DNA of 56,050 nucleotides, filler included, from Basidiobolus ranarum (lineage: Eukaryota), in NCBI GenBank assembly GCA_040143965.1. It is 3 parts of 3 records of this genome, joined end to end, with 100 filler letters (N's around TTAATTAATTAA, not from the genome) between each part and the next. Parts side by side here need not be neighbours in the genome. Positions count along the whole stretch, not along the records: positions 37,516 to 56,050 come from JASJQH010007149.1; 2 more parts are not named here. One strand, given 5' to 3'. Below are positions 14,643-56,050 of the stretch, in pieces. The position numbers and the translations under genes are program-made. The notes under the pieces were generated by a model that worked only from the letters and a program-made list of their open reading frames with translations, made no database searches and was not told where the DNA came from. Within the stretch, counting starts at the first letter, position 1. Each line of letters starts with the position of its first letter.

Positions 14643-14899
14643 TGAATGAACTGGAGTGAGAAATTTCCATTGTTTATTGAGGGAGAGAGAGTGAGGCGTC
14701 TTTAAAACGTTCAATTGAAATGTTAACATATTAATGAAGGCTACATTGATATCAGTTATTCTATAAAGTATAGTGATTCGAATGTAAACTCTCTACATCC
14801 TTAATAGCAATAAATTCCAAAGCACCTTCAAGTGAGCAATTATAGGTAGTTACCAATATGCATCTAAAGATACACTGACTAAATCTCTAGACATATTAG

Positions 14900-14955
14900 T
14901 TGCGTAATGACGTCGAGTGATGTGCATCATTTCGACTTCATATGATTTGACGTCA
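14900..14955. promoter_or_regulatory. bZIP (CRE/ATF-type) sites upstream of the NmrA-like gene
   Basis: TTGCGTAA-TGACGTC at 14900-14914 and a perfect TGACGTCA at 14948-14955, 160-220 bp before the ATG. Confidence 0.45.
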
Positions 14956-15117
14956 TCCATTTCTAACTACCAACGTACCAGCATCAATGATAAAACCAGG
15001 ATTCTTGACCATCAACACATCCACACATCCACACATCATTCACCAGCCTTCAGTTTACTCTTTGGGTTGAAAGTTATACATCTATATATTAACAGTTGAT
15101 AAATCTCACCATCCAAT

Positions 15118-16002
15118 ATGACTCTTGCAGTGCTTGTCGTTGGAGCCACCGGAGCTCTAGGACAGAATATAGTAAAGGCTTTACTTCAAAAAGAAGGGCT
15201 AGTAAAAGTCTCGGTCTTGATACGTGACGCAAATAAGGTTCCAAAGCAGTGGGAAAATAAGGTGCAAGTATTTATAGGAGACTTGACTCAACCAAGTTCA
15301 CTGACTCAAGCTTGCCAGAACCAAGAAGTGGTCGTTTCTGCGGTGCAAGGTGGAAGAGATATAATTATCGATGGGCAAAAGAATTTACTGGATGCGATCA
15401 AGCTCAGTGGCAGTGTTAAACACTTCTTTCCCTCTACTTTCGCCCTCGACCTCTTCCAGTTGAATGACGAACTAGCTCCTCTGGGACTTACCCTTCGACG
15501 TGAATTCGCAGACTACCTGGCGGCAGATAAATCAAACTTGAAAGTGACACACGTATTAAACGGGTGCTTTGTTGAAACACTGTTCAATCCTAAAGTCTGG
15601 GATGCAAAATCTAGCACACTTTATATCTGGGGGGATGGTGATACTAGGTTTGATATTATTAACATGGAGGATACAGGGAAGTTCGTTGCTGAAGCCATAC
15701 TAGATCCTAGCGTTGACTCCCGTTTCGAATGTAACGGTGAAGATATCTCCTTTAACGAAATAGCTGAACGCTTAGAGATGGTGTTTGGAGTTACAGTCAA
15801 GCGGGAATCATTAGGTACCGTTGAAGAGTTGAGAAGCTTTGTCAAATCACAGCAGGAGCAAAATCCAGGTGTCCCCATTCCCGAACAGTATCTTCTTCCA
15901 ATCGTCTCTGGAGTTGGAAAATTGGAGCATCTCCAAAACTTAAATTACCCCGACTTCAAGCCCAAATCCCTGGAACAATACATCGCACTTGGTCGTATCT
16001 AA
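15118..16002 (+). CDS. NmrA/isoflavone-reductase-like NAD(P)-binding protein, intronless
   Basis: N-terminal VLVVGATGALG Rossmann motif, FFPSTF, LNGCF, EDTGKFVAEA; 294 aa. Confidence 0.88.
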   Translation: MTLAVLVVGATGALGQNIVKALLQKEGLVKVSVLIRDANKVPKQWENKVQVFIGDLTQPSSLTQACQNQEVVVSAVQGGRDIIIDGQKNLLDAIKLSGSVKHFFPSTFALDLFQLNDELAPLGLTLRREFADYLAADKSNLKVTHVLNGCFVETLFNPKVWDAKSSTLYIWGDGDTRFDIINMEDTGKFVAEAILDPSVDSRFECNGEDISFNEIAERLEMVFGVTVKRESLGTVEELRSFVKSQQEQNPGVPIPEQYLLPIVSGVGKLEHLQNLNYPDFKPKSLEQYIALGRI

Positions 16003-18675: not shown

Positions 18676-18775
18676 NNNNNNNNNNNNNNNNNNNNNNNNN
18701 NNNNNNNNNNNNNNNNNNNTTAATTAATTAANNNNNNNNNNNNNNNNNNNNNNNNNNNNNNNNNNNNNNNNNNNN
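18676..18775. other. Assembly gap with artificial TTAATTAATTAA filler
   Basis: N44-TTAATTAATTAA-N44; identical to the second gap. Confidence 0.97.
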
Positions 18776-19082
18776 GATAACTAAGTACTAAGCTATATAT
18801 GACTATATAGGTGTTTAGGCAATGCTAATTTCAACATTGTCAAGATAGAAGCAAAATTACATTTAGAATGTGTTGCAAAAGGTCCCAGGAGCATGTGTGC
18901 AAAGTTTGGGGCTTCTAGCACATGTCTGAAAAATTTATATATCTGCAAGCTTCCAAGTTAGTAAAAGTATTTTAAGTAGGCTCCAATTGGAAATAATGGA
19001 TGATATCTTGGTTCAATATGGAATAACCAAATACTAAGCTATATATGACTATATAGATGTTTAGGTTATGCATATATTCACA
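18776..19082 (-). mobile_element. Two nested LTR fragments of the same copia family
   Basis: One LTR end at 18836 (GCTAATTTCAACA) abuts the interior of a more diverged copy, 18837-19082. Confidence 0.82.
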
Positions 19083-31167: not shown

Positions 31168-34100
31168 TCATTGAAGTGCAAAAGCGAGTCGTTTCATTGT
31201 AGCGAAGCCTTGAGCGGTAAATCCAAGTCCGATTTTCACAAACCCAAGAATCAGATCAGCTTCGTCCTTGGATAGTCTGTCGTAAGTAGCTTTGTCCAAC
31301 TTCCACAACACACAGTCAATCTCTGCGACCAAAGTATCATGGCGTAATTGATCGGTAAACATGCTCATTTCTCCGATCATCACCCCCGGAATAACAGTCT
31401 CTATGACTTTACTGTGCTGATTCATTTCTACTGAGAAGTGTAAGAGTCCTTGTTCGACTATATACAAGGCATCGGGTTCATCGTCTTGATCCCAAATGAT
31501 AGTATCGGCAGGCACCTCGATCCTCTGGAAGTGCACACTAATCCGGCGAAGAATATCCTCATAGTTTTCAAAGGAGGTCTCCTCGAAAATTTGTAATAGA
31601 AGGGCTAATGGTTGATCTATTTGATATAAAGACTTGCGTAGATTAGGCTCTTCGTTAAGTGCTGTACGGGCTGCATTCTTCAACAGGCGCTGGCGTGGTG
31701 ATGCTGGTGCGAAAGAAATCTCAGAGCGAGTATCGTGTTTAAAATCAGGAATATCTATGTTGTTTGGAGCAGCAAGAAGTGCAGCTCTAATGAGATAATC
31801 CGCTTGAAGTAATACATTTTCACACCATTCTAATCCTGCATTCAAATCTTGGAAATTTTGTACATGAGGGTCATCAAAGCCACCCCATATATGGAAAGCA
31901 CGAAGTGCTACACCCATGTCAGAGTCCGCGCTGACTCCGGATATCACCATATAGACATCATGGCTCTTCAACAAACGTTTGACGCGCACAAAGGCCTCAG
32001 CAGCGCTAAAGTCAAGTCCTTGAACTAATTGGAAGTCCAACACCAAGAAACGAATTGGATTCATTGCCCATTGTCTTGCGTCAAGCACTTCTCGGATGCT
32101 ATTTTCAACACCATTAATCGACCCGAAGAACATGAATCCCTGTAGACGCAATACTTGAATCATTGAGCCGACTTCATTCAAGAATCGTTGTTGCAAACGT
32201 GGTCTACGCACAGTACTCTTAGCGGTGAGACCAGTCAATGAGGCCCGAATGGCTCTACGAGTACTACACAGGTAGACGAAGAAGATGCATGCCAATACAA
32301 CTCCAATAAACATTCCCTCAATAAATCCAAAGATAGCCATGGAAATGACGATGGTCAAGATTGTTGTGTATTCCAAAGTATCTACTTGTCCTATAGGATC
32401 CCATATTCCTTCTTTCATTAATTCCATACCAATGTGGAAGATGAGTCCCCCGACTACCATCGTTGGAATATACCCGACCATAGTAGGCCCTAGCAAAAAG
32501 ATAATTGTTGTGCCCAAAGCTAACATCATACCAGCCACTCTAGAGTCTCCTCCGCATTTGATGAATAGGGTGCTTGTGGAGTACATTAAATAATCTATAA
32601 GAGTTCGATTATTTAGTACTTTGACATGGAAATGACACAATAATAAAGTAATCAGTACTTTGGAAGGAGCCGAGGAAACCAGATCCAAGATTGGAATATC
32701 CATGGGCTACCAGTTCTTTGTTGACATCGACGCTGTCTTGGTTGTTTGTTACGGCCAAGGCAGGAACGTTAATAGGCACGTGCAAGATTCCTGAAGAAAT
32801 TAATGTGAATTTTAGAAATTAAACACTTTCGTTGTTGATAATCCATCAAATTAGATCTTACCGAAGAAGGTTAATGCAGAGATAACAGGTATGAGTGAAG
32901 GTAGGGTTTTCCAACTGGTTTGAGAGAAATCTACATGCATTAGGTAAAGTTAATAATGATTACTTGAATTTTAGTTGATCAGGAAATCTACCATAGTGAG
33001 TCCAATAATCGTAGAAAGGTTTGGATTCAGGTAACGGAAAGACCCAGCCGGTAGTACGTAATTCCTCTAGACTCCAGCCTCCCAAGTATGTAACAGAATA
33101 AAAGACGATAGGAATAGAAAGGAAAAAGCAGGGAACAAACATCGGAGATTGAATCTTCCTCTGCAAGATTCTCATTAATAAAGCTGCACCAAGACTACTG
33201 GCCCATAATGCCAAAATGGAAGGTTCGAAGTAATTTTTGAGAATATCTGGCGCAAGCGAGAAATTTGGGATCCTTGAGGATACCTCAATAGCAGTTTGGA
33301 ATAAAAACCAACCGACTCCACCTTGTGAATGGAAAAGGATTAGTACCAGCGCGAAGAATATTTAATAGCTCGCGAATACTAACCAATACATCCGACTAGA
33401 ATATGGCGAGGGAAGAATCCAACCAGTGAGCCAAGTTTAAACACTCCCAAAAACATAAAAGTCAACCCGGTAAAGATCGTGGCGATTGCATAACCAACCA
33501 TAACCGTAGCAATTACCGCTTTAGGATTCTCTTCTCCTACATCCCGAATGACAATATCGCAACTGAATAGATTATTAGTAGAGATCAACAGAAGCTGTAA
33601 TATTAATATACTTACATTGTATACAGGAAAGGAATCACTACATTTTGGAATCGAGGATTAGATATAATGTCTCGTCAATTAGATAAACCAATATACTTTA
33701 CCTTCCAACATCATGCCTGCATTGGCGCCTTTGAAAGCACTTCCACCAGCTGAGAACACGATTTGGCCTACTATACAACTTACTAGGTACATGGAAATAC
33801 CATCGGGACCAAAGCTTGCGAATATCGGATGTGCAGTAGGGAAACAAATGAACCCATAAGATACGGCATTCAGCAGATTTAGAATAACTCCCAATGCCAC
33901 AGCTGGTAAAAACTGAATAGAATACTTTAAAAATTCGATGGGGTTTTTTGGTATTACTTCTTTAACGGTGTCAACAGGTGTTTCCCTTGTATAGTGGGCA
34001 GAGTAGATGGATCTAGCAATACTTTTTCGTCGAGACCACCTGCTTGAGGCTACATCATCTTCTGGATCCTCCTCAACTGGGACACTTGAATTTGGATGAG

Positions 34101-35693: not shown

Positions 35694-35980
35694 TGTTGAA
35701 ATTAACATAGCCTAAGCATCTATATAGTCATATATAGCTTAGTATTTAGTTATTCCATGTCACTCAGATATCACCTACTAGTCGAAATCGGAATTTACTT
35801 GGAAGATTTTGAGAACTTGTCCTAGAGGCCCCAAACTTTCCTGGGACCTTCCTTACCACATTCTACACGTTGGTTTTTTACTCAACTATAAATGTCAACT
35901 CAATAAATCGATAAGTGAAAACCATCAATTCTTTCTAGTTCTCTAAACCACTTCCAATAAACTCTCAAAATACCTCAACA
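35694..35980 (+). mobile_element. Solo copia LTR with internal deletions and a 5-bp TSD
   Basis: TGTTGAAA...CTCAACA; flanks AGTGA / GGTGA. Confidence 0.85.
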
Positions 35981-37415: not shown

Positions 37416-37515
37416 NNNNNNNNNNNNNNNNNNNNNNNNNNNNNNNNNNNNNNNNNNNNTTAATTAATTAANNNNNNNNNNNNNNNNNNNNNNNNNNNNN
37501 NNNNNNNNNNNNNNN
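37416..37515. other. Assembly gap with TTAATTAATTAA filler
   Basis: N-run containing the artificial linker. Confidence 0.97.
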
Positions 37516-37959
37516 ACGCAATTGAACCAGATGGGTCAAAAGCACCACGATATATTTAGTAATGGAGTTTTATGAACCATTTTAAAATTGACACGACAAA
37601 ATTCGTTGAAAAACCTAAACACGTCCAGAAAGCAGGAGTGCTAAAGTTAGTCCAAACCCCCAACCAAGATTTACGCTCAAGAAAGTCCCAGTAGTGCCTT
37701 TGTTTAATGTTACCTGGTGTATAACAGATAGCCCAAGACTAACCAACAACAAGGTACCAAAAACCTCGGCCAAATATTCACGATATTGAAGACGGAGCCT
37801 AGAAAGCCAAGGAGTACTTTCTCCTGTCACTAGCCGCTTAAGTAAAGGCGACTCGTTTAAGAAACATTTAATGCTTTCATCATTCGTCTCGAAAGTGATT
37901 ATTGTATCACTTGTCTTCCACTTCTCGCCTTGAATTTCCGTTGGATGAATTGTTGTCAT
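37516..37959 (-). pseudogene. Aquaglyceroporin (MIP/GlpF type) 5' part, apparently disrupted; runs into the gap
   Basis: REYLAEVFGTLLLVSLG..SVNLGWGFG then in-frame TAG; the expected GGHLNPAVS appears as GAFDPSGSIA with no AG acceptor. Confidence 0.65.
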
Positions 37960-40281
37960 ATCGTAGAGTTGATAAAAGAGTTGATAATGAATTTCTAGTT
38001 CGGTGTCATAGTCTTTTTATACAGTATTTCTACAGTTAACTGCTGCAACAACATTAAAAATATTTCGACGCATATGTTGAGCTTTGCGAAGATTCTCATA
38101 TCTTATCAGAAATCCAGCCAGATTCACACTATATACTTGAAAATATTCAGCTTTGAGCCTCCCTAGGGAGTGCATCAACAATGATTACTATGTTAGTTGT
38201 CACGTCTTGCAGGAAAATCAATATTAGTGTGAATTTTAGTGCCACATCGTTACAAGCATAAGGCCGAATTATTATACCAATACTCTGCCTAACTACTTCA
38301 TCGGAGATCATCTTTGTTTTGACGCATTGATGTGTGAAAATTAGGATGCTGCTATGCTTAATACTGTGCATCTCAGCCTGGAATTAGGTGTATCATTTAC
38401 TTAGGGCTAACTGTTGCAGTCCAGTACAGGTTTTAGCTGAGCCAAAGAGGATTGTGACCATTCAAGCCATGATATACCAGGCTAGGTCATCTACTTCTTA
38501 ATCTTTATGAATATGTCAATTGAATTCACTTTCTTGTGGATCGGCCTTAAATTAAACTCTTAACTCACTCCTTTCAGAGCGGCATTTGCGAATCTGAAAG
38601 ACAGGAAAGTAATGTATATCCTAGTTAGTGCCTGTTTGAAAGCTCTTGCTAGTAGCTTTTCTCCGTGTGGAGGTATTCTTTGATTGTTGTCATCAGTGCA
38701 TAAGGGGTTCATTAATTAGTGTCGAATATAGAAAGTCTTTGGTAATACGTAAATCACTTCTTTATTTGTACAGATATGATGTTTGCTATCCTTATCCCAA
38801 GGGGGTAGTGCTAGGGAAATGGTCATGACCTGTTGCGTGGGTACATGGGACTTAGATGTTGATACTATCACGCATCAGATAACTCCATGGGAATACCTTG
38901 CCAAGAATGAACACTGGCTATGTTTGTATACAAAAAATCCGGGATATCCATTGTCAAACTTGGTTTCTTATCCTAGGGAAAAAATCTGGAGCTAAAGGAT
39001 GTTGATCATTATTTACTTAACGACGAGAAATGAACCAAGTGGTTTTTGACTGAATGCCAGGATCTAGATGTGACATCAATAGTGAGTGCGATAATGTTCC
39101 CAAAGTTTATATGCGCAGTGATAATGACTACCTATATGATGGCAAGTACAATCCAAGTCGCAACCATAGCATAGAGCTTCCCATTAGTTACATAGGAGCC
39201 CTCTCAGAGGAGGTTGTAGATATATTGAGCAGATTTGATTCCAAGAAAGTAGTCAATTCCCAAAACAATTAGATAAGCTTGAAAGGATGATCCTTTCGTC
39301 AGTGTATTCTGTTCAACAGACCTGATTAGAGTCATACGAACAGAAGCACACAAAATGACCAAAACCATAAAACTAATGCCTCCAGAAATCAATAGGCCAA
39401 GTGACAGAATGAATACTGCAAAAGTGAATCTATCCAGCACGCCGCATGCCACAACATCCAATCTCCAGAGTAACGAGACATATACCTCTCAATGGGGTCA
39501 CCAACGTAGTCAAGAGTTGCTTTGAACCTGTTGGCAGGTGGAGGAATCTCAACACAGATCACATACAGAATAAAGCCTAAAATTCACAAGGATCTAGGAA
39601 TCATCTCTTCATGGTAATTGGTTATTTAAACTGATTCATATACATTGATCGACTATCAAACCATCAACCCAGCTTAATGAAAACAATCACTGATCTCCAG
39701 AGTACAAACCTATGCTCATGAGAACGACAGCGATACTTGTTTGGACTTGAATTGGGTAGCTAGCGTCATCTTGCGCGAGAATAAATCGAAAGTAAGGCAC
39801 AGAGGGGAGAGGATGGTTATAATCAGACAATTAGAGCGTGGATGTAGAGACCATTTTTACACCAAAGTCAAGCAGTGAGGATCAATACTGGTAAGGAGTA
39901 TCAGTTCGAGATCTACTGATTTGTCACATTTAAACGAGGCTCAACTCTATTTCGAGATTATGGATGCCAACACTATATGCGAAAAACAAGGCCAGCATGA
40001 AGTAATGATCACTGTCCAGGAAGTGTAATGATGGGTCCACTGGCGCCATTCGCGAGTTCCCTTCAGTTCGGGTTCTAGGGCAGCGCTGTTTTGGTGACAA
40101 TTCTCGGCTCACGAGATGGATTGTGAAGTGTGATTTGTGCTAAAGCGAAGTATTTATTGCCCAGTATGATTCAAATACATACCATAAGAAATGAATTATG
40201 GAGTAGGATCTATATCCTCATAGATATATATGTATGTACAGAACAACGAAGAGATAATGAAGATACGCGTACATATGCGTT

Positions 40282-42031
40282 TTAATCATCTTCCAAATCA
40301 ATCTTCAGCATTTTCCTAGCAAAATCCACATGCTTGACCGTCCCAACCTCAAGTATGACCGAAGTTATCTTATCATGCTCCAATAAGAACTGCACTGCGA
40401 ATTCCTCAAAGTTCCCCTCTCCTTCACCCACTTCAATTCCGCGTGCGTCCAGGTACTTTTTCAGGCAAACTGAGCCAATGTGGTGGACCTCCCTTTCGTA
40501 TTCATTGAAGAATTTCTGCAAATGCTCTAACCACTCGCGAGGTATTTCGTCGAATTTTTGATGAATCAAGGAATATACTCTTTGCTTGATCTCCTCATAT
40601 CGGAATACGGAGTCGATATTCTGGATTTCTGAATTTAATCTATTGATGGTCTCTACTAAGAAATGGGGACTATTGTCAATAGGAGTAGTGTTCTTCTGAA
40701 TCAGTTCTAGCGTTTCTGCAAGCACTTCTTGATATGATGTTCGAGGTGTACTGACTAGCTTCCATGTTCCAGCCTGATCGAAGGAACTTAATGGTCGGCT
40801 AGTCATTACCTGAAATTATTGATTCAGTAATATTTCTAGTGAGGCGCTCGAAAAGCCGCTAGCAAGAAAACTTACCTGTAGATTTTGTTTGCCTGCCCAT
40901 CGCAGCATGGATTTCAATCCCTCTGTTTCCAGTACATTGGCCGGAAACTGAACCGTGGAGAAGCCATGGTTTTGAGTTCCTCGGATGCTTTGTGCGGCCT
41001 TCTCGGCTAGCTTGGTTAGGTCTTTGTATGGCAAGAAGTGAGGATGCTCGGGTGGCAACGCAAAGCTATTGCTAGAAATACCATACTTGAGTTGGCAGTT
41101 AGCAACTTTACTTGGACCAAAAACAAGACTCAATTCCATGTCTGAATTACCGATTTGATTCTCCCGTTTTTAATTTCGGTCTCCAATGCCTCAAAAGTTT
41201 CTGCGATCCTTGAGACTAAATTCTTTTGTAATTCTAGGGAATTTACACGGGCGATCAGATAAAAATTCATTTCCGTAGGCAAAACTATCGCTTTACCACA
41301 CCTTGAACATTCGCGTCGGGAGACTGGATATGATGCATCAAATAATATTCGGGATTATAGATGAGATAGGAGTCAACATAGTCAGTTCGTAACCGAGTCA
41401 AACTACGAGAGAGCTGATCTCTATTCTTTCCACAATGTATATGTGCACTTTAGTAACTACCCACGTGTTTGTAGAGAATCATTCTACTACGCATTCACTA
41501 AGTTGGAGTAGACATAAAGGAAATAGAAAACTTACCTCATAAAGTCTGGGTGAATGCAGTGGTAAATATTTTGGAAAGGCTTGATTATACTGGCTTCATC
41601 TAACTTTAACCACATAAAATAATTAACTTACGGTTTCTCCTACTCAATACTATAACACTTCAACTTACTTGTAGCTTTCCCTCTTGAAATAAACGCATAT
41701 TTTCACCCTGTAAGTAACCAAACTTAGAAGTCAAGTAGACCTCCTCTCTTCTCAATATCTCTGGGTTTTCTTGATGAAGTATCTAGAAGTAAGCAACATG
41801 TCATTAGCTGTTGCATCAAATAAGTGTACTTACCAATAAACAAAATACCTTTCCAAGTAATCTTTCGCTTAGACCGTTTCCATAACTAGAGGAAGTATCG
41901 ATCAAGCTTAAATTTAGACGCTCATCGGATTGTCTTTTCAATGCAGAGAGTAATGCCCTTTCATGTTCAGGCATGCCTAGGAATAGGCGATAAGTTCCTA
42001 TGGCAATTCTAGGTAATCGTTTTAAACTCAT
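40282..42031 (-). CDS. Aldo/keto reductase-fold protein, about 7 exons
   Basis: [84 protein letters not shown]. Confidence 0.82.
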
Positions 42032-42671
42032 TTGAGCTCTTCAAGAAAACTGGTCGGAAAACTAAAGTTTGAAATTTCTCCAGATATAATTAGTGATGGA
42101 GTAAAATTTAGGTTTGAAGTTCAAAATGTGGCTTTGGGTCCAGGCTTCAAATTGAATATATGAACTTACGTGATTTTAATAAATCAATGGACTTTTCTGG
42201 GACCGTTCATTTGTGACCAGGATATTCATCTAGTATTAGGTCAAATCAAAAGCAAACTCCCTATTATTTGCCAATCTCAGAATCGATTTTCCGACTTATG
42301 GTGAGTCACTCTTAAGTTCCAACACAAAGGGGTCATTGGTATGCATCTGAATATGATGTGACAGGCAATATCTGGCACTCTTGTACAAAAAGTGGGATGC
42401 AGTGATATACACTCATATGTGTGTCTATTCGCACTGACACCCTTCAGGGTCGATGTAATGAATCCCAGAAGTGCTATAAACCTCCACTAAGCTGTAAGAA
42501 AGAAAGTCTGGTGGAGATGTTCTACTGCAACCAAAAGTAATATCACTTGATGAATCTTGCGGGAATGACATTAGAAACTCATTAGATAAGACAAACTTTT
42601 TTGAGATTTCTAGCATATACACTAGCACTCATAACTGATTCACTTTTTTGCATGCAGTTTTAAAATGACAA

Positions 42672-43214
42672 TGTTTAAGTATTTGGGAGCCTGTTGGAAG
42701 TGGTTTGGAGAACTAGAGAAATTGGTGGTTTTCACTTATTGATTTATCGAGTAGAAAGTTGACATCTATACTTTTGTCAAGATGTAAACAAAGTGACATG
42801 GAAAATGTGTTAAGGAAAGTCTCAGGAACATGTGTTCAAAGTCTGGGGCTTCTAGCACAGGTTTGAAAAAATCTATATATCTGAGAACTTCTAAGTAAAT
42901 TCCTCATGAGAATAATGGGTAATATCTTAGTGAAATATAAGATAACTAAATACTAAGCTATATATGACTATGTAGATATTTAGGCTATACTTTTTTCAAC
43001 ATATATAGATATTTAGGCTATGCTAATTTCAACATAGAGTACAAAGTTTGAGGTCTCTTGGACAAGGTTGAGATAATTATATAATCTTCAAATTTCCAAG
43101 TTGGTCTCAATATGGAGCGTGAATTCCTCATGAGGGTATCTCATAATAACATAGTGAAATTTAGGTAGCTAACTACATGACTATATAGATGCTTGAGCTA
43201 TGTCGTTTTCAACA
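42672..43214 (-). mobile_element. LTR cluster: near-full copy 42672-43001, 33-bp LTR end 43002-43034, older diverged fragment 43035-43214
   Basis: Three successive ...TTCAACA termini; homologous to 1266-1613. Confidence 0.85.
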
Positions 43215-44267
43215 TAAACCAGTAACCCCAGATTTTAGCACTTTGAAGTGGACTTGTCCATGTTTGAACATGATATAATACTACCTATAACCATAGAGAG
43301 CTAAAAAATAGTTATTGGCAAAATATAATTTAAAAAATGTGAGCTCAACATTGTTCTACCAATAGCACGGAATACAAATGTATACAGCATCGTAGAGTGG
43401 TGGAATCACTTTCACCAATGTCAGAGACAATTATTTAGGTTCTGATTAAGCCGTATGTTAAATGTGAAGTTGGATCATTCAGTGAATGCAGATATTGACA
43501 TTTCAAAGATGAATGCAAAAGAAGTGAATCAGTTCGGGGTTTTCAGTATCATCAGGCCACCAAAGGAAATCTGCATATAGTAGAATGGTGACAACTCATA
43601 TCCCAATGATACATATGAGCATGCTGAATACAGTTATAGAAAAACACTGGATATTACAGGTATAGCATCCATTGTGTACCAAATTTCAAAGATTATCTAT
43701 TGTAATCTGATCGATTGCCACTATTTATCACTGAAGTGACACTCTAGGATGCATAATATTTTTAGAAACGTTCCTGCGCTCCCCTGTAGAAATCCTAACC
43801 CCAGCCAATAGAACTCATGATGGCATAAAGTTGGATACAATAAAGTTATGATTTACACATGTATTAATCTCACTCTTGATTAGTGATTCTATTCAATAGG
43901 TGTTTTTCAGGATCTCCTGTGATAGAATCTAAAGCAAACAACCTTCATCTTAAACATGTTGCTCACTAATCAAATGCTAGATCCGTGGAGAAAGTAGAAT
44001 AATCTATACTACAAAGATATTCTCTTTGCTACTTCTCTACATGAGATGAAATGACTCTTCACTTCCACACTGAGCCCTTAGGTTTTAAACAAGCCTGTTT
44101 AAAAGTTTTATTGTTATTGGCTACTAGTAATATACCTCCACTATAAGAATAATAACTCCACTATGAATTTATCACGTTCAAGAATATGTCCTGAATGGAA
44201 TGATTAGCAACGCTCTATACAATGAATACATTATCTCCTTATTTACAAAATTGGATCGAGCCAATAT

Positions 44268-44993
44268 TCATAATCGCACTACACTGGGTTTGAAAGCTCC
44301 AATTGGAATTGCAGACTCTATACCATTACTTCTCGGTGCGGCAAAGAGTGCTCGATCTGCTGCGATGATGCTCATCAGCTCTGAGAAGCTAGGCAATTGG
44401 ATTTTACTCTTGGTCTCAATATTGAGGTTAGGGCTCACTGGAAGAGAATCCGTTACTGAAACACATTCAGCTTTGATTTTAGGGGTGACAATATACTCTT
44501 CATCACTCTCTGAAGTCCCTGAAGAAAGTGGTGAAGATGGTGGTGACCAACACTTCTCCTTCTTGGTTTTAACTCCCTTTGAAGGCAAGGACCTTTTAAT
44601 ACCATTACTGGTAGTATTTCTATGCTGTATTTCTTCAGCTTTACGTTGAGCAGCCAGCTCAGCTTCCAATGCAAGCTGTTTCTTACTTTTCCTACCTCTT
44701 TTCTTGGGATTGATATGAGTCTTGTGATGCCTAGCGAGTTCGTCAGACCTTGAAAAAGTTTTGAGACAACCATCAAATTGGCATCGGTAAGGCTTCTCTC
44801 CGGTATGAATACGGATATGTCTTGTTCTATGTTCAATCCTGTAAAACTCTTTATTGCAAAGTGGACATCTATGAAGGCGTAGACCCTGTGATTTTTCCAA
44901 TCCAGCAAGTAGCTGCTTCATTGCGTTATCTTGGTACCTGGACAAGTTGGTAGACACTTTATTAGAAGAAGAATTATTAACCTTATTGTTCAT
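44268..44993 (-). CDS. CreA/Mig1-like two-finger C2H2 transcription factor, paralogue 1 (intronless)
   Basis: [51 protein letters not shown]. Confidence 0.9.
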
Positions 44994-45090
44994 TTCTGAA
45001 GCAGTGGTTAAAGTGAATAGAATTTTGAAATGGCGGTGTATTACCTCGCGCAATATGAACTAAGCGTTTAAATAGCAGTTTTCATGAATT

Positions 45091-45839
45091 TTATCAGATT
45101 TTCATCTTGAGTCATCCAATGATTGCTTTGAGCAAATTGGTCAACTTGGATTTACTGGGCATTGCATCTTGTATCTTACTAAACATTTTTTTAAGAGTTT
45201 TGGGAGGAACCAACAATGCGAAAAATTATCTGATGCATTCAAGTTTTTACTATAAAAGTTGAATCCGGAATATTTCGAATAAAAGGATGTTGTTGTTTTC
45301 TTTTGAGAGCTCATTTGGTTCTTTTTTAGTTGTCAAGATGATGAAACCCTGAATCCAATATAAATCTCTACAGATTTCCTCCGCATTTACTTGTTTGAAG
45401 TCGATACTACCGCTCTTTTGGTACTATGGCTGGTAGCATTACCAATTGTACCGAAAATCATACTGTTGTCAAGCATACCGATTGAAGCACCGATTGGTAA
45501 CAAGTTTAGATGGTCAATGAATTACAATATGTCGGATAACCACTTCTAGTCTATAATCAGCGATGGTATTCCGATGCATTTGCAGGATTTATGCGAGCAT
45601 CTGATAAAAAACCCTTGATACAATACTAAGCTACTTTAAAGCCAACTCATTTATATTAATCAGATAAAGATCATGTATAATATAACCAATACTACATGAA
45701 TATATTGGCTACACATTAATAATCAGAATCAGATAAGTCAATACATGCCCCCAACATTCACTATTGAATGCAAAATCTCCTTAAACATTCCAATTAAATC
45801 TAGGTAAATAGTAACTCCATCTAGACTCTGATCAGATAA
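45091..45839. promoter_or_regulatory. Six ATCWGATAA GATA sites in the divergent promoter of paralogues 1 and 2
   Basis: Exact matches (either strand) at 45091, 45226, 45599, 45659, 45728, 45831. Confidence 0.8.
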
Positions 45840-46420
45840 TTAAATTGTTGAGAATATACCTGAAGCACGTTACCTCCCCATTAGTACAACGAGAGAGCGT
45901 AGCATTTCTCCATTAAGCATTCCACTTTGCATCCAATGATAATCCAGAATATCTATTATTTGATTTGGGTATCAGATCCATGGAATATTCATTTTGTGTG
46001 AGAGATATCAACTAGATCACAAATGGGGAAATCCGTATTTTCCCCGCGCATTTTCAGATAAAACTACTTTTCATTGGAATATTAGTTCCATCCCTAATCG
46101 TATGAGAATTCCAATTTGCATCCATGTATGTTCTCCAACAAATAGGGGTGGAATTGTAATGCCCTTCGTTATGGACATATTTGGGAATCCCGGCACTTCT
46201 CTATCGAAATTGGACGAATTTCCCCTTTTGGGAGCAATTGGTCGAATACATGGAAGTAATTTCCAAGAAAAAAAACCCTCTGCAGTTCAAGGATTGTAAG
46301 ATGAATCCAGGTTGTGGGCAGGAAATTACATATAAATCCACACAAATCCACGCTAGGCTTAACCTCACACTTGCATTTATCAACCCTACAAACAATTAGT
46401 CCACAGCAACACCTTATAAG

Positions 46421-47086
46421 ATGTCTTGTCAGATTCAAACGACAGAAAATGTGTTACAGTGCGAAGAATCCAGTATCAAAGATATACTGGCCAATTTAGA
46501 CAGTACTGAGATCCCACGCCCATACGAGTGTCCATTATGCAAGAAGGCCTTCTACCGTATTGAGCACCGAGCTAGACATATTCGAATTCACACTGGGGAA
46601 AAGCCATTCAAATGCGATTTCGCCAACTGTACCAAGTCTTTCTCCAGGTCTGACGAATTAATTAGACATCAAAAAACACACGCCAATCCTAAGAAGAGAG
46701 GCAGGAAGAGTAAGAAGCAACTTGCCTTGGAAGCAGAGATGAGCAAACATACTGAAAGCACCGATATTCACAACCAATGTGAAGTTAAAGACGAGGGTAG
46801 CAGTCCTATGAAGAAACCTCGTGTTTGTGAAGATTTGAAAAGCTCTACTCCTTCATCTGTATCTTCTTGTACCTCAGAGAGTGAAGATGAGCCAATCTCC
46901 ACACCTATACTAAAATGCCAAAATTTGAACAGTGTCCCGGAATTTACTTTGAGTGAACGAAAACCCGACGTGCAGCTCCCAAGCTTCTACGAGCTGATGA
47001 AGATAATATCCGCTGAAAGAGTGCTACCATTTCCAATCAGAGACCATATGTTTGCATCCACCAACAACCCAAGTTTTGATCGTTAA
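46421..47086 (+). CDS. CreA/Mig1-like C2H2 transcription factor, paralogue 2 (intronless)
   Basis: [50 protein letters not shown] ~90 bp upstream. Confidence 0.92.
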
Positions 47087-47401
47087 CACTGGGTTTTATT
47101 ATGTATATAGACATTGTATATTATTTAGCTGTGGACAAGCGGGTTATGTTCACAGATTAATGTTTGGAATAAATCAATCAACTTCATATCAAATCAGTTT
47201 GTTAGGACTAGCCCGTTATCATTTCAACGTATGTTATGACTTATTGTAGCTAAATATGGATTGTAGATAGGAGAACGTATTTCGGCTAACTTTGGAAGCG
47301 GATGACCGCAGTATTGGTATATTTAGATGATCACATAATCTGGACACTATTTGAAGTGATTGACGAATTCTAGACAAATGTAGTGTTGGTTGGTGAGCAA
47401 C

Positions 47402-47847
47402 ATCAGATAAATATTTCATCTATAGTTGTAGACTTGATTGCTGGGGATCCACCCCACCTAATTATTGAATTGAATGGGGCAACTTGGGAATGAGATAGGA
47501 CTAATCTATTAGCAATAATCCGAACAGATGGCTAAATGGGGTATTAGTGTCTGGATGAAACGAGTTCCAATCAGATAAATTCAATTTGATGAGAAGAGAG
47601 AATCTGATAAGTATTGTTAGGAATGCAAAACACCACACAAATCACATCATTTATTGAGTTACATGCACCTTGTACCACTCAGTCATATCAGATGTAGTTT
47701 CCAATAATGTCCTTACGTGCTCCTAGACCTGACCCCAAATGTTTCATGTCACCAAGTAAGGAATCAGTTTTGTGAGTATATTGTGGGTGTTTATCAGATC
47801 TTCTTAACTGATGCATGAGCGAGACACTTGGGTTGTATTTATCAGAT
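47402..47847. promoter_or_regulatory. Five ATCWGATAA sites between the convergent 3' ends of paralogues 2 and 3
   Basis: Exact matches at 47402, 47570, 47602, 47791, 47839. Confidence 0.7.
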
Positions 47848-48372
47848 TTTAGTATGTAGTGACTGCTTTTGTGATTCCATCTCCTTTCGAATGAGAATAC
47901 GCCAGTCTGGGTAACACATTTATCTTGGCAGTTGCCGAAAAGTCATAACCAAATCTTTCAAATATTTGGGGAATTTGTCACTGCTAACCGAGCACTAGTT
48001 AAGTGTTTAAGGTGCTATCATTTCTGCTTCGAGTTTAGCTTGATATCTATCAATTTAGTAATAGAAATCGATTGAGCATGTTTTCATATCTAATTTGATG
48101 GTGCACATTATCAATCAACTAGTAAAGTTCTCAACATTATTCTAAAAATATCCAACCAAGGATGAATTTATTAGCAGTGCGATGGATTCAATTTCACATC
48201 TGTAACAAATATTGATGAATTGGTTCCTGGACAAAATACTGGAACGGAAATTTGATGCGAGGAGAGTCAACGATGACAGTCTGTACAAGTGAGCACAAAA
48301 AATGGAAGTCATATATACAACAACAAAACTACATTATTTTCAAAGGAATATACTAATCAAGTCAACTTTGGT

Positions 48373-49155
48373 TTAGAATAGACCAGGGAAAATAGAGTAG
48401 CTAGCAGTAATTGACTGTGATCGTGCCCATTGCGAATTCGTCATTACCGGTGGAGGCAAAATACGATCATTGGAAATCTTCGTTAAAAGTTGTGAGAAGC
48501 TAGGAAGCTGTGTAGTTTCGGAGTCCTCCTTGCATGCCGGTTGCTTCGAAGATAGTTCATTTTCAGAGGCCAAACTTGCAGAGATTTCGCAAAGAAGCTC
48601 TAAAGAAAGACCGTGTTCTGGCTTTAGTTCGGGAGAAGCTATCGCTTCATCTTCACTTTCTGAAGTGGAGGAAGAAGATGAGAATGCAGGAGAATTGGGA
48701 ACTTCTTCGTTCTCAGAGATACAGCATCTCTTGTTGGGTAACTCTTGAGAAGTCTCTGAATGTTCCTGAGATTCCTCAATACACTCGGCCTTGCGTTTCT
48801 CATCCACTTTTTTGGCAGCTATTTCTGCTTCTAAGGCAAGCTGCTTCTTGCTTTTACGTCCTCTTTTCTTAGGGTTCACATGAGTTTTCTGGTGTCGTAC
48901 CAGTTCGTCAGATCTAGAAAACGATTTTTTACAATCAGGGCTTTCACATTTATAAGGTTTTTCCCCAGTGTGAATACGGATGTGTCTGGTTCTATGCTCG
49001 ATTCTATAGAATGCTTTTTCACACAAAGGGCATTTATAAGGGCGTGGAATCGTTGCTTGGTCTAGAACTGCTAAAAGTTCATCCATATCGGTGTCTTTCA
49101 CTGTAGGGAGAGCACAAGAATTTTGGGAAGAATTAACTTCTACGGTTGAAGCCAT
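48373..49155 (-). CDS. CreA/Mig1-like C2H2 transcription factor, paralogue 3 (intronless)
   Basis: [53 protein letters not shown] ~70 bp upstream. Confidence 0.92.
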
Positions 49156-49260
49156 GGTGTATATAATATTTGTAATAATCAAGCGATGTTTGATGATAGA
49201 AATCAGATATCTCTGAGCATTATATATACCATCATGAATCAAATCCTCATCCCTTCAAAG

Positions 49261-50100
49261 ATCTGATAAACAACCCCTGTCAAAGAAACTCATGAATAAG
49301 CGTTAACAGTTCATCATGCTCCACATTAATTATAAAGAAACTCATTCCATTCAGTTCCCTTCCATCTGATAATGTACTGATATCCAGCCTAAATGAGTCA
49401 TTTGAAACACATCAATTCATGTACTTGTGAAGCAGGATGTATGCTTTCACTGGATGTTCTAAGCGCCGGGTTTCCAAATGGAGTATCCAGCTGTTCTTTT
49501 ATCTCCATTTGGGTGTCTGATTCCCATCTGATAAATTGTTCGCATAAAATCCAAGACTGAGAATGACCTGGAGTCCATCAGATATTTCGTTCTGCAAATA
49601 ATGTCTAGTAATACGTAACTGATTCCACACAAATCCATTAGCGTAACATTAATAAATTAGTTTGGAAAAGATCAGATAAAGCCTCCATCTCTTGCCCAAT
49701 AATGATCTACCGGAGTTTGTTACCATCAATAGAACTATGTTTTTGGGTTGCCGAAAATTGGAATGGGGCAAGCGATATATATATATGTGGTAAGCGTTTC
49801 TATAACCCAACAGGGTATGCATATCCTCTGGCGATCAATGTAGAATTGGTAAAGTAAAAAACCCATCTATATATGAGCTAAAAGGACTGAGTTACTACGT
49901 ACTACAGAGCTGCTTGTCAATCTGATAATTTCATAATTGTTGAGGGATGAAAAGTTATCAGATTAAAAATATTAGTTGCTTGGTAACGATTATTTTCAAT
50001 TGTATTACATTCAATCGTTCTCTCAAACCGGAGGTCATAATAGGATTTCACATTCTCCATTAGGTATACTCACTACCTCATAGTATTTAGGATCAGATAA
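49261..50100. promoter_or_regulatory. Seven ATCWGATAA sites upstream of paralogue 3
   Basis: Exact matches at 49261, 49364, 49526, 49671, 49920, 49955, 50092. Confidence 0.8.
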
Positions 50101-50535
50101 CTTTACAAAGTCCTCCATTACAATGGTATATTGATCGATTAATGATTGATACCCCGACTACCCTACCATTTTCGGTCATTAGTGATTCTGTAATATGATA
50201 TATTCTGGAACAGAAATAATGTAAATATCATGTACCTTGCACCCAAGTTCCAAACTAACTTGGCACTTTAAGCTGCGAGTTTGATTTCTATTAAAATGCC
50301 ACCTAACATATACCTCTATTGAGTGGCATAGAGATTTAATGTTGATCATTCTACAGTGTCGGAATATACAGGTAGATTCTAAGGATGTTTGATGAACTTG
50401 GTGCATTTAAGTTACATCTTAAGGTATGTTAACACAAGAATAACTAGCCCAAAAGTCTCTCAATTAAGGACTACCCTTTAGAAGTAAATGTATCAGTAGT
50501 CATAATTGATCACACAATGTAACTAAGTATATTTT

Positions 50536-50856
50536 TGTTGAAATAAGCATAGCCTAAACACCTATATAGTCATATATAGCTTAGTATCTAGTTATTCCAT
50601 ATTGAACTAAGATATCACCTCAAGAGGATTTACTTGGAATTTCTCAGATATATAGATTTTTCAAACTTGTGCTAGAAGACCCAAACTTTGCGCACATGTT
50701 CCTGGGACCTTCCCTAACACATTCTACATATTAGTTTGTTTATATCTTGACAAAACTATAAATGTCAACTGAATACTCAAAAAATCAAAAAGTGAAAACC
50801 ACCAATTTCTCTAGTTCTCCAAACCACTTCCAACAGGCTCCCAAAATACTTTGACA
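50536..50856 (+). mobile_element. Solo copia LTR with a perfect 5-bp TSD
   Basis: TGTTGAAA...TTTGACA flanked by ATTTT on both sides. Confidence 0.88.
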
Positions 50857-51004
50857 ATTTTTATATTTTCTTTACTAAAGCAATAGTACTATATATACAA
50901 ATAGATAGTCACTACAACATTCAAATCGTTGTTATAACACTAGATGAAATATGCAAGACCGGAATGCGTATTCGTTTAAAAAATTAAAGACAACTCAAAA
51001 AAAT

Positions 51005-53598
51005 TTACATGTAACTCACATAATCTGATCCAAGGCTTTTTCGTACTTCAATAATGCACGTCAATTCCTTCATGGATTCGCTTAAGATAATGATATTATC
51101 CACCAGTGAGTTGATGTTGTTGACTTGGATTGGCGGTATTTCTTTGCTTTGTGTGCTACTTGTAGTTGAGTTATAAGTATCGACATGCCGAAGGAATGCT
51201 CCTGTTATCGGCACAGCATCTGCACTGGTGGGTGAGAGCAGGTCAGACTCGTAGAATTCATCGTCATACTCAAGAGGCTTGTTAAGTTGATTAATGGCTA
51301 GTTGAATTGATTGCTCTGTACTAGATTGGTTAAGGAAATAATCTCTACGATCATTAAGCATTTGGTCCAAGTTAGGAACTTTTGATTGATAGTAGGAGAC
51401 ATGTTCGGTTAGCACACGGAATACAGATAATACATCGGGATCTTTTGAAAGTTTTGTTTCCAGATTTTCGACCAGGCCCATATCTGAGCATAACATGGCC
51501 TGGATGGAACTGGCTGGTGTGTTTCTAGTTTCTATAACACAGTTGGTATGCTCCTCAAGTGACAGCCACCCACTTATGCAACGGTATGGACAAGTTGCAA
51601 GCGTGGATAAGACTCTCGTTAAAGCTAAGTTGAATTCACAAGAATGTGCGAAAAACTGTGATAATAACGATAGTAAAATACTCAAAATAGGATCGGAGCT
51701 ATTTAAACGATGTCTTGGGAAGTACAAGCTTGGTTGTTTCTCCGAAATAAGAATTGACCTACTTTGCCCCTCAGTCACTTCTCTTCTTTTTTTGCTTGAA
51801 GCTCTATGCAACGCACACTCCTGATGGTATTCCTGATGTTCTTCAATCTGATGTTGAATATCGAACAAATAATCCTCATAAGCTTGAACAAATTCTTCTT
51901 TATCATGTGTAGAATCTATTCTCGAGATTTGCGCAAAATAAAGATCCATAACCCGTAAGTGTTCTATGGCCTTAAGTCCTTGTGCTGGGTTTTTTAATTT
52001 TCCCAATTCTTCTAAATTGGTTGCTTCGATAGCTCCATCATAAGCTTCGAAGTCTGGGACTAATTCGATTTCAAACAAGTCAAAAGAATGATGACAATGA
52101 CATACTAGCATCGAATGCAGCAGGTTTAGTGTTGTAATAATGATATGTGGCGAGCTAGACCTCAGATTACAGATAATCACTTCCTTGATGTTGTAAGGAG
52201 AAATAAATTTGTGTTCTATCGATGTCAGCAAACCTGTCCCGGAGTCGATACTCATGACATCCGCCCTCTCCGCAACATTTGACGTTTCTGATTTTGGTGA
52301 AATTCGAAACAATTCTCGGGATTTTTCGATTGGGCCTGGCTTCATATTCATCAAATATTGTATAAACATGGAGTTTAACTCCTTTTGCTTTATAGTTTGA
52401 ACCAATACATTAACGTAAGTAATTACTGCAACTGCTGAGCCGTCCAGTTCTGAGCATTCCAACAACGAAGGGTATAGAATATTTTCCAAGAAAGTCCTTC
52501 TTATATTTTCCAATAGAGAGCTGCGTACTCTTACGCTTGGGCATCGGTCAAGTAACTCCTGTGTGAACTCCAGGTATTTTGTGAAAGAACAAAGGTGTTC
52601 TTGGAATTCCAGCGATATCGAGCTTTCCACGCCAGCGTTCTCCTCGATCTCCAGTAGTCCCGTGTTGTGAGATACTACTTTTTCATCTTCGTTGATCTGT
52701 AGTTTGATAACTAATTTGCGTGGTAATAAAGAATAGAATGCTCCTACACCAGCCGCGACTACCGCGCACAAGTCACTCTCCACATGAATATAATCCCGCA
52801 ACTCTCCGGATGTGATTTCGACCAGAAAAAGCATAGCAGTTCTCGCGATATCTCCGGTCTTTCCATCTTTGTGAACGAACTTGAGTAAATAACCAAATAC
52901 TGGAAAGTTATACCTAGATTTTCCTACGCGAGTCACGCCCTCTACCATATTTTCTGTTACTATAGGAGCCTCCAAATCCCAGACACTTTGATAAAAAAAG
53001 ATATTCAAGAGCTCAGGACATCGTCGAATCTTGGAACAAACACTAAACATTAAATCCACCATATCTTCGTGATATAGATCTAATTGGTTTTGGTTCCCCA
53101 TACAATGATCCAGTAACTTAATAGTCGACCCATGCACTTTGTTGTGGATAAGGAAACGCTCATCTAGTGTGCTGATCATACTCGAGATAGTCCGAATAAC
53201 TTCTCCACGAAGCCCAAATGGTGAATCGAGCTCTGATAAGTTCACCAGCCACTCCAGAATATCATTGCGCAAAAGATACTCCATACAATCTCCAGTAGTC
53301 CCATCTTCTTGCCGTATTTTCTCTTGAACAAGTAAATTGGTGAGCAGCTTCAAAGAGTCTGCTAGTTTACTATCCAATATCTGGTTCTCACCTGGAATCG
53401 CCTCTTCTAGCAACCTCTCCTAACAAATTGAAGTTTCAGCTTACTTATTCACAATTAAATATGGTTCTGCCATTCTAAAGTTAGATACCCACATACCCGA
53501 CAAAAATTCCAGTTTCTCTCGAAGTGGACCAACCTCTCATATCTATCAGGCTGTTTTAAGGGCAAAATCCGATTCTTCAACTTTGTGAAGTAGCCCAT
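51005..53598 (-). CDS. FHIP/FAM160/RAI16-family protein (FTS-Hook-interacting), intron ~53420-53496
   Basis: TGDCMEYLLRNDILEWL, CSKIRRCPELLNIFF, FPVFGYLLKFVHKDGKTGDIARTAMLF, FNLALTRVLSTLA, NIIILSESMKEL. Confidence 0.85.
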
Positions 53599-55571
53599 CA
53601 CTTACGGCAGCTGGTGACTACTCGCCTGCACAGTTTTTATACCGCTAATAGAGATGGCTTTATGGGTCGTTCAAGAATAAACAGACTAAAATCACTACTT
53701 TAATGGCAGAAACTTCAGTAGAAGCAAACAAGATTGGAGTCAAGGTCAGAAAAGTTGGCAATCCTACTCAATATAAAGAACACAACTCTGAAGTTTAAGC
53801 TCAATCGAAAATTTCTGAAACCTGATGTATTAAGGGGAAACTATACATACTGAGCAGTATATATATATTCAACCCCTTGCTAATTTACGGAATTCCGGCA
53901 AGTACCATTAAAGTGATATGTGCATAAATATACTACTCTCGTTTTTGGATTAATGCCACCTAAATAAATTTCTCCAACATTTAATAGTCGTCAAAACGTA
54001 CCAGTAACCAGAATATACAACCTCGACAATCAACCGCTACTGACAATTACTCTAAATATATTGCGCAACTGGAGACTTTATTGAGTCCATAAACATTACT
54101 CAGATATGCCAACACTGGTAACGAGAGAACTAAACAGAGTCTTCAATAGTTGTACATACTGCTGATAAAAGTATTATAATAGCTGTCGCGATAATAGATA
54201 CAAAACGAAAGCAAGAAATTAATGTCTAATACTTTAAGACAGTCACATCATGGGCTGAATTTCAACAAGAAGTCACATTCACGATTTTTGCGGTGATGGA
54301 AACAAAAATCATTAGTTCCAGTTTTCAGCACGTGGTATCCACGCAATGTTAGATAATGCTAGATTAAGCCCTTGCCATTGTGAGGAGTAAACGGGCCAGA
54401 AGCTGGAGAGGAGAAACGAACCAGCTACTTTTATATACACCATACGCCAATCCAAATAAATCCGAACAAATTATGGCCATCTCATCAGCACATATAGACA
54501 AGTCAATTACAAGCGAATCAAGCTCGGAGATAATAGCGTGAATCATGTTTGAGAAACTTCCCCATAGAAAAATACTGATCTGGTATTATTGGTCAACACG
54601 GCTTACCAAATTAGTGTTGGTATTATATTTATAGTTCAATTTCGCCAGCGTTATGGATAAATGTTTCATGAAATCCATTTCTAAAATCAGACTTCTGAAA
54701 CAATCCTATTCCGATTTGGAGGTTCCAACTAATGCTTAAATATGCAAAATCACTCGAAGCATGGCTCTATAGTTGATATGCAAACGGTGATGAAAGCATT
54801 CCTGGAATATTCGACTTCACGAATAAGATCGTGACGCAGCGGAAGATATGTCCCCAGCAAATAATGGATGTTATCCGCTGTACTGGCCTATCGATGATTC
54901 CAATGTTAGCCTCATAAAGCGATGCACTTCAACCATTCACCATCATAAGACTACGACCAGAAAATGAGATTCAATTTGATGAAAGAATCTTGATAATTGC
55001 TCCATTACAGCTCTGAATGCATGTCAGTCAATGGAGTTTTATGGGATACAATCTATCATTATGCACATTTGCGCTGCTATACGTCTCATTAGACTCGTTC
55101 TGTATAAAGCATACCCAAGTGCTTGTTGTGCTTGCAAGCCATATTTTCTACTTCTATATTTGAGTGAGCTCTCCGTAGAGTAACTTCTTTTCTCTTCCAG
55201 ATCTTTGGTGACTTGATTTCTATCGCCAGGTTTATTCGCAGTTGCTTAAATTTCCCCAGTTTGTTTGCAGTTTTCTTGGTGATTGTTCATCCCTTGTTCC
55301 ATGATACAAACTTAATCAACCATCTCCATTGCTAAAATTTTAATCCTCTTTTGGCAAATTGCATATTGGATCGTTACTAAATTGATTTTGCTATTTAATC
55401 CAATTTAGACTATATATATATACAAGATCTGTATATAGTATTACTACTCAGTCAAGGACGTTTCATCTTCTTTTCTGCACCAATATAATCAAATATCTTG
55501 TTACATTTATTGAAACTCTAGCGCGAGCAAGCTTTCCTGACACACTGTTACCTCATAAAGGAGTACCTTTT

Positions 55572-56050
55572 ATGATCTCACCTCATTCTTCTCAGCCACA
55601 AATGCACCCCTTCTATACAGCACCTCCGTTCCCTGTTGATGAATCGGAAATTAATAACCCAGGCAATCCACAAAACCTTGGAGATAACCAGCAGCACATG
55701 CAGAGACAAGTTCAACCACAAAATCAACCCTCTGATTATTATTTCCCTAATACTGGCCCTGGAAACTACGAAGTTCAACCGTCCGGTCCTGTTGGAGCAA
55801 TACCAATGGTGCCTTACAATGCCTATGCGTCACTCTTGAATAAAGCCTCGCTCAATTTGACCGGTAACATAGATGATATCATGATAAATTGGTATGTCTA
55901 AAAATTTATTCCAAACCCTTTATTGTGCTAACTTCATACCAATACAGGAGTGAAGAGGAAACAGAAACAAAACGAAGACTGGTCCAGTTTTGGCGTCAGC
56001 ATGAAAATAATGTTATTCACTGTGGTTTCCAGCCAGTAGCGCCAGCTGAG
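55572..56050 (+). CDS. MedA/Medusa-like developmental regulator, partial (runs off the window), intron ~55892-55948
   Basis: Q/P-rich N-terminus, then NKASLNLTGNIDDIMINW/SEEETETKRRLVQFWRQHENNVIHCGFQPV, resembling the start of the MedA conserved domain. Confidence 0.7.

Follow-up and report, generated by a model that had tools for sequence, protein, structure and literature searches.

The intergenic regions around three small CreA/Mig1-type zinc-finger genes of Basidiobolus ranarum (NCBI GenBank assembly GCA_040143965.1) contain 18 exact copies of the nine-base word ATCWGATAA, the extended site published for SreA-type GATA factors. The window, by which we mean the whole 56,050-base stretch of DNA analyzed, is made up of parts of three records of this genome; the three genes lie in the part from JASJQH010007149.1 (positions 37,516 to 56,050), and all coordinates given are those of the window. 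Exact matches to ATCWGATAA were searched on both strands. The locus is a real and unusually dense homotypic cluster of GATA sites, its enrichment is specific to the extended word, and the genes it surrounds belong to an old paralogous set. An SreA-type factor may control these genes through the array; this reading is tentative, and is weighed below against others.

Distribution of ATCWGATAA in the window

The window contains 22 exact ATCWGATAA matches, where 100 dinucleotide-preserving shuffles give an expectation of 2.46 (standard deviation 1.55; the largest count was 8, and none of the 100 reached 22). Eighteen of the 22 lie within 45091-50100. All 18 are in the three intergenic regions of the locus (IG1, IG2, and IG3), with six, five, and seven copies respectively, and none is in any of the three open reading frames (ORFs). 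When these regions alone (4,562 bp) are compared with 2000 dinucleotide shuffles, the 18 observed copies stand against a mean of 0.29 and a maximum of 3.

IG1 (44994-46420) is the promoter region between the divergent genes 1 and 2. Its exact sites, at 45091(-), 45226(-), 45599(+), 45659(+), 45728(+), and 45831(+), are 98-838 bp away from the ATG of gene 1 and 582-1322 bp away from that of gene 2. IG2 (47087-48372) is 3' of the convergent genes 2 and 3; its five sites (47402(+), 47570(+), 47602(+), 47791(-), and 47839(-)) are 316-753 bp beyond the gene 2 stop codon. IG3 (49156-51004) is upstream of gene 3, and bears its sites in the part between 49156 and 50100, at 49261(+), 49364(+), 49526(+), 49671(+), 49920(+), 49955(-), and 50092(+), or 106-937 bp from the gene 3 ATG. 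Along the window, the strands thus run two minus then four plus in IG1, three plus then two minus in IG2, and five plus, one minus, and one plus in IG3. Near-matches are found at 45969(-) and 46053(+) in IG1, 47685(-) in IG2, and 49202(+) and 49577(+) in IG3. Altogether, there are 15 one-mismatch versions of ATCWGATAA in 44268-51004 and 45 elsewhere, although the positions of three of the 15 show them to be no more than exact sites read in reverse.

Beyond the locus there are four exact sites, at 9959, 35599, 38874, and 41254. The last three of these, all in plus orientation, are in the 10 kb preceding the locus along the window; the ORFs near them have no Pfam match, and their number is within chance for the window as a whole.

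A preliminary description of this DNA had reported 18 exact sites around the gene triplet and none within its ORFs, and had judged the array to be far beyond chance. Exact searching recovers all 18 at the coordinates it implied and none in the ORFs, and the local shuffles agree with its judgment of chance. It had counted only about three sites elsewhere (9959, 35599, and 41254), having missed the one at 38874. The five near-matches it listed all exist, but two had been placed 2 bases off, at 45971 and 47687.

Composition of the site

It is the extended site, not GATA in general, that is enriched: of the 26 GATAA sequences in the three intergenic regions, 18 have an ATCW prefix, vs. four of 162 outside. 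The density of HGATAR is 7.0 per kb in the three regions and 4.0 per kb elsewhere. Versions with C or G at the center or with other spacings (ATCSGATAA, ATCGATAA, and ATCNNGATAA) do not occur in the three regions, and ATCSGATAA does not occur in the window at all. In an unbiased comparison of 6- to 8-mers between the three regions and the remaining window, the top ranks are occupied only by fragments of ATCWGATAA.

The base preceding ATC in the 18 sites is A in eight cases, C in five, G in five, and never T; the base following GATAA is A in ten, T in four, and G and C in two each, for a consensus of V-ATCWGATAA-(A). Since T never precedes ATC, the site consists of one full GATA and one partial GAT, and a complete inverted GATA is avoided.

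Other words gave little. ACATTAW was considered as a second motif, but its excess among the k-mers of the three regions is modest and its positions are scattered, and it is unconvincing. CreA-type boxes (SYGGRG) are not enriched in the three regions, with eight copies (1.75 per kb) vs. 101 outside (2.05 per kb), so there is no sign of autoregulation. Nor is GATCGA, which we take to be the Neurospora white-collar consensus: there is one copy in the three regions (0.22 per kb) and ten outside (0.20 per kb).

The preliminary description had equated the word with the extended SreA-type site, and the literature supports this. In the Aspergillus fumigatus SreA study, ATCWGATAA is presented as a motif found de novo, an extended and partly palindromic form of HGATAR; it is over-represented in SreA-regulated promoters where HGATAR is not, and the in vivo sites of the Ustilago maydis and Schizosaccharomyces pombe SreA orthologues conform to it (PMC2610380). 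The same authors relate it to the palindromic GATA-1 sites of vertebrates, and the combination of a full GATA with a partial GAT is the form described for two-finger factors (PMC2610380, citing Trainor 1996). A published comparison figure gives 5.4-fold site enrichment in regulon promoters.

Flanking and shared sequences

The sequences flanking the 18 sites differ. Considered as a dispersed repeat or miniature inverted-repeat transposable element, the copies have no flanks in common beyond the 9-mer itself; what the three regions share is a few short blocks, 14-40 nt overall by blastn and a repeat finder, with the blastn matches among regions (each region searched against the window) measuring only 18-25 nt. 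Three collinear blocks found by the repeat finder join IG1 and IG3 (45599/49261, 45683/49616, and 45906/50053). With the motif masked, IG1 and IG3 share nine 10-mers vs. 2.1 expected, and IG2 and IG3 share eight vs. 1.7, a modest excess that is compatible with a very old common ancestry of the promoters. Because the flanks are unrelated, the array is not a repeat family, and the earlier view that it represents motif selection and not a tandem repeat is borne out by the flanks themselves, blastn, and the repeat finder. Unrelated flanks, paralogues that are only ~45-50% identical, and a triplication older than the species split together indicate that exact 9-mers were kept while their surroundings decayed.

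Each of the intergenic regions also has a single exact copy of a second sequence, CCACACAAATC, in plus orientation, and the window has no others. The copies are at 46338-46348 in IG1, directly after a TATAAA that sits 85-90 bp before the gene 2 ATG; at 47633-47643 in IG2; and at 49625-49635 in IG3. With up to one mismatch allowed, the search returns these three and two one-mismatch copies, where 1.01 are expected in the window. It may represent another regulatory element that the regions have in common, or it may be left over from a shared origin of the promoters.

No fourth paralogue, pseudogene, or zinc-finger remnant was found in IG2 or IG3 by tblastn with the three proteins, and a weak tblastn match at 45517-45585 is not significant (E = 2.6-8.9). 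No hidden gene was found in IG2 or IG3, only short stop-to-stop frames. Among Rfam RNA families, none was found in IG2; the one match obtained was at chance level (E = 0.75), and the sole tRNA lies far from these regions.

The locus does include one dispersed repeat, ~330 bp long, at 50530-50855. It has at least seven copies in the window with 75-85% identity, and no ATCWGATAA inside; further copies are at 1-334, 331-466, 601-944, 1266-1613, 18777-19080, 35694-35973, and 42677-43218. It may be a small non-autonomous element. At the filler joins of the window (18676-18775 and 37416-37515) there are four 44-base runs of N, in two pairs with 12-base spacing, and one of these pairs adjoins a copy of the ~330-bp repeat.

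The three mini CreA/Mig1-type genes

Genes 1, 2, and 3 are intact ORFs of 241, 221, and 260 aa, at 44268-44993(-), 46421-47086(+), and 48373-49155(-). Their products are paralogous, with 45-46% identity to the gene 1 protein by alignment and 45-50% by pairwise tblastn. Each has two C2H2 fingers (Pfam zf-C2H2 twice). By alignment, all three continue with an invariant basic block, an acidic serine stretch (SESDEE in the gene 1 protein), and a C-terminal QLPSFxELM...R.L motif (QLPSFSELM...R.L in gene 1).

The fingers of the gene 3 protein are 69% identical to those of Trichoderma CreA over 67 aa, and helix positions -1, 2, 3, and 6 are the same as in Trichoderma CreA in both fingers (R/E/H/R and R/D/E/R). 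Mig1/CreA proteins bind GC boxes of the SYGGRG type. Since the recognition-helix residues are those of CreA, binding to SYGGRG-type boxes is predicted, and the three proteins should therefore bind GC boxes. Among the best 120 matches, many of the closest named homologues beyond Basidiobolus and the Mucorales are CreA/MIG or carbon catabolite repressor proteins, in a listing where animal poly-zinc-finger proteins also score, through repetition of the finger. Such animal proteins dominated the matches in a search for longer CreA forms.

The rest of the protein is less like CreA. The C-terminal block, (Q)LPSFxELM...R.LP, is in all the Basidiobolus copies, with PSLxDLL in the Mucorales counterparts; against the CreA region beside ELPSLRNLS it aligns only weakly (E = 0.002). 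Canonical CreA is ~400 aa long, well above the 221, 241, and 260 aa found here, and the Basidiobolus and Mucorales relatives are 180-260 aa. The triplet had initially been described as CreA/Mig1 genes. This holds for the fingers, by percent identity and by contact residues; the proteins as wholes are not canonical CreA but members of a small subfamily.

The best database relatives of the trio are Basidiobolus proteins. The closest in B. ranarum are K7432_011835 for gene 1 (71% identity), K7432_011834 for gene 2 (79%), and K7432_006927 for gene 3 (64-68%; 64% by BLASTP). K7432_011834 and 011835 are a pair on one B. ranarum contig, and K7432_006927 is on another, of 16.9 kb, with its neighbors 006928 and 006929; two B. 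meristosporus relatives (K493DRAFT_310550 and K493DRAFT_295948) likewise share a contig. In a maximum-likelihood tree of 20 proteins, every gene of the window groups with its own Basidiobolus orthologues, and the Basidiobolus copies together are sister to a clade of Mucorales proteins, 180-250 aa long and with the same architecture. As judged from this tree, the trio arose before the sampled Basidiobolus species separated, and belongs to a small-CreA subfamily common to Basidiobolus and the Mucorales. The Mucorales proteins in question (P0027, P0028, P0041, P0043, P0067, P0071, P0091, P0101, and P0107 in our set) have finger, TP..SP, PSLxDLL...RVLPP, and LPSIHS motifs as in the Basidiobolus trio. 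The source of one of these proteins calls it "Vacuolar import and degradation protein 27", which looks like an annotation error.

Possible functions of the array

The reading we favor, to which we give a probability of about 0.45, is that an SreA-type factor controls the gene trio through the array; the identity of the word suggests that iron supply could switch the trio on and off. A two-finger GATA factor of the SreA/Fep1/Urbs1 class would bind the sites with high affinity, one finger reading GATAA and the other the inverted GAT. With sufficient iron, the factor would cover the whole ~6-kb cluster and the three genes would be off; with scarce iron, it would leave the DNA and the three repressors would be produced. 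These mini-CreA repressors would in turn silence a group of targets by binding GC boxes of the CreA/Mig1 type. What we infer in this scheme is the identity of the binding factor, the direction of its effect, the role of iron as the signal, and the genes acted on by the repressors.

For a repressor gene as the target of an iron-responsive GATA factor there are two precedents: php4 is repressed by Fep1, a protein described as having a Cys-rich region flanked by two zinc fingers (PMC4373815), and a feedback loop links SreA with HapX (PMC4232046). Mig1 has also been connected with iron, in Cryptococcus neoformans, where Mig1 and HapX are reported to regulate one another and iron-dependent genes (PMC4863601). 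Among early-diverging fungi, the promoter of a Mucor rhizoferrin synthetase holds ATCWGATAA in silico (PMC9226013), and the Mucor genomes are described as having SreA homologues and lacking HapX and Aft (PMC7011435), so that a different second-tier regulator is conceivable in this part of the fungal tree. The trio might even perform the iron-sparing arm in Basidiobolus, as a non-homologous replacement for HapX/Php4, and the same might hold for other early-diverging fungi with SreA and without HapX or Aft. Departure of the SreA-type factor from the 18-site array would then directly de-repress the trio, and respiration and other iron-rich pathways would be shut down through GC-box sites. Iron starvation would thereby act directly on the machinery of carbon catabolite repression. 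We regard this extension as unlikely.

Several observations weigh against control of the trio by an iron-responsive SreA-type factor. The array flanks C2H2 regulator genes and not iron-uptake or siderophore genes, and no iron-uptake or siderophore family was found by Pfam among 15 other large ORFs of the window. Outside the fingers, the alignment of the three proteins contains no common cysteine-rich motif of the iron-sensing type. The arrangement of the sites is also awkward: five of the 18 are 3' of two convergent genes, an unexpected position for a promoter element, and orientation relative to the genes varies, being with the gene for genes 1 and 2 and opposed to it for six of the seven gene 3 sites. 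A simple promoter model does not fit such 3'/3' sites and varying orientation. A set of 80 CreA/Mig1-like loci from metagenomes (395,622 bp), none of them close to Basidiobolus, served as a family-wide negative control; no array was found in these, only seven ATCWGATAA in total with no more than two per locus. Four of the loci (L001, L002, L004, and L007) have full-length small-type matches, and none of these four holds a site. Seven sites in this much DNA show that the array is not a family-wide trait. No GATA-finger gene is encoded in the window or in the 80 metagenome loci.

The window contains some sulfur- and redox-related genes (Pfam), at 13110-16002 and 31168-32703. These encode a PAPS reductase, a SelR/MsrB domain protein, an NmrA-like protein, and a sulfate permease exon with STAS and cyclic-nucleotide-binding domains.

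If some GATA factor other than an SreA type binds the array, it could be of the AreA/AreB (nitrogen) or white-collar (light/clock) type, or specific to the lineage, in which case the trio would serve as the second tier of nitrogen, light, or developmental control. This is possible, though on the unlikely side. A single-finger HGATAR reader would leave the ATCW prefix unexplained, given how rarely GATAA carries it outside the three regions, and the presumed white-collar word is hardly denser there than elsewhere. On the other hand, all 18 sites have the GATAA core that such a factor would require, the genes beside the array are not iron genes, and a published Neurospora circuit has the white collar complex driving a metabolic repressor (PMC4381671). 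Candidate factors are conceivable as well: entomophthoralean fungi are reported to have wc-1 homologues (bioRxiv 10.1101/2023.09.13.557621), and Pomraning et al., whose sample includes B. meristosporus, note extra, uncharacterized lineage-specific GATA groups (PMC5311114). The literature nonetheless presents ATCWGATAA as specifically the extended site of the SreA class (PMC2610380).

The even spread of the sites across all three regions, the 3'/3' IG2 included, and their inconsistent orientation to the genes would suit a protein of another kind, or a role in chromatin, for example as a boundary or silencer or as promoters of unannotated non-coding transcripts; the likeness to GATA sites would then be coincidental. 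So would CCACACAAATC, as a second element present once per region and always in plus orientation. Yet the 9-mer agrees with a defined GATA-factor site at every position, down to a W and never an S at its center, IG2 has neither an RNA family nor an ORF, and in the literature searched no non-GATA reader of the word was met, matches to the literal word being mostly primers and unrelated. We consider this explanation quite unlikely. Finally, the sites might be neutral leftovers with no present function, derived from promoter duplication or from some short dispersed repeat. The three genes did arise through duplication, and the collinear IG1-IG3 blocks and the modest 10-mer excess are what such leftovers might look like. 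However, the duplication took place before the sampled Basidiobolus species diverged and the paralogues have diverged by half or more; with flanks that cannot be aligned, 18 exact 9-mers and no S-center variants could not have outlasted such neutral decay, and the sole true repeat in the locus (50530-50855) does not carry the site. This possibility is barely credible.

Broader significance

To our knowledge, fungal iron regulation is understood almost only in the Dikarya, in which a GATA repressor works together with HapX, Php4, or Aft. Should the array be an SreA target, the trio would supply three concrete candidates for second-tier regulators, and would tie iron to repression of the carbon-catabolite type. 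Even if there is no link to iron, 18 exact sites in 4.6 kb make an unusually clean natural homotypic cluster, a possible setting for work on the reading of ATCWGATAA by two-finger GATA factors and on joint regulation across an entire set of neighboring paralogues and its 3' spacer. The genus Basidiobolus has among its members a pathogen of humans and animals, a context in which iron acquisition matters; the array findings have no direct bearing on virulence.

Comparison with known systems

The sites recognized by SreA, Fep1, Urbs1, and SRE are the closest parallel to the array. They have the identical 9-bp word, the same combination of a full GATA with an inverted partial GAT, and the same over-representation of the extended form. 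The targets described for them are mainly iron-uptake and siderophore genes, whereas those here are transcription-factor genes. The Basidiobolus array also differs in having 18 exact sites in 4.6 kb, with a 3'/3' region among those occupied.

The proposed logic is that of Fep1-php4 in S. pombe and SreA-HapX in Aspergillus, as these are described: a GATA repressor silences the gene of a second repressor under iron sufficiency, and the second repressor spares iron in starvation. The second tier in those fungi is a CCAAT-complex subunit (Php4 or HapX), whereas the three proteins proposed for that role here are C2H2 proteins of the Mig1/CreA type that lack a conserved Cys-rich iron-sensing motif, in a circuit deduced from the sites.

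Like the CreA/Mig1 repressors, the three proteins have two C2H2 fingers, of CreA type at the contact positions, and an adjacent basic region; their Ser/Pro-acidic stretch and the LPS(F/L)xxL after it align weakly with the part of CreA that precedes ELPSLRNLS. Unlike them, they are 221-260 aa long, vs. ~370-450 aa for the named CreA matches, and are present as three clustered copies.

CSP1 of Neurospora is a C2H2 protein related to Nrg1/Mig. Its control by the white collar complex differs from the scheme proposed here in its signal, which is light or the clock, in the factor being an activator, and in the type of site, if the presumed consensus (not enriched here) is correct. It is similar in that a GATA-family factor, in this case an activator, governs the gene for a global repressor that depends on glucose, and so forms a circuit with a second tier (PMC4381671).

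In the literature searched, Basidiobolus appears together with SreA or GATA only in taxon lists, and no example was found of a Mig1/CreA-type trio as a target, of an array of this density, or of sites spread across a whole paralogue cluster. Taken one by one, the type of site, the family of the genes, and the logic of two tiers are already known.

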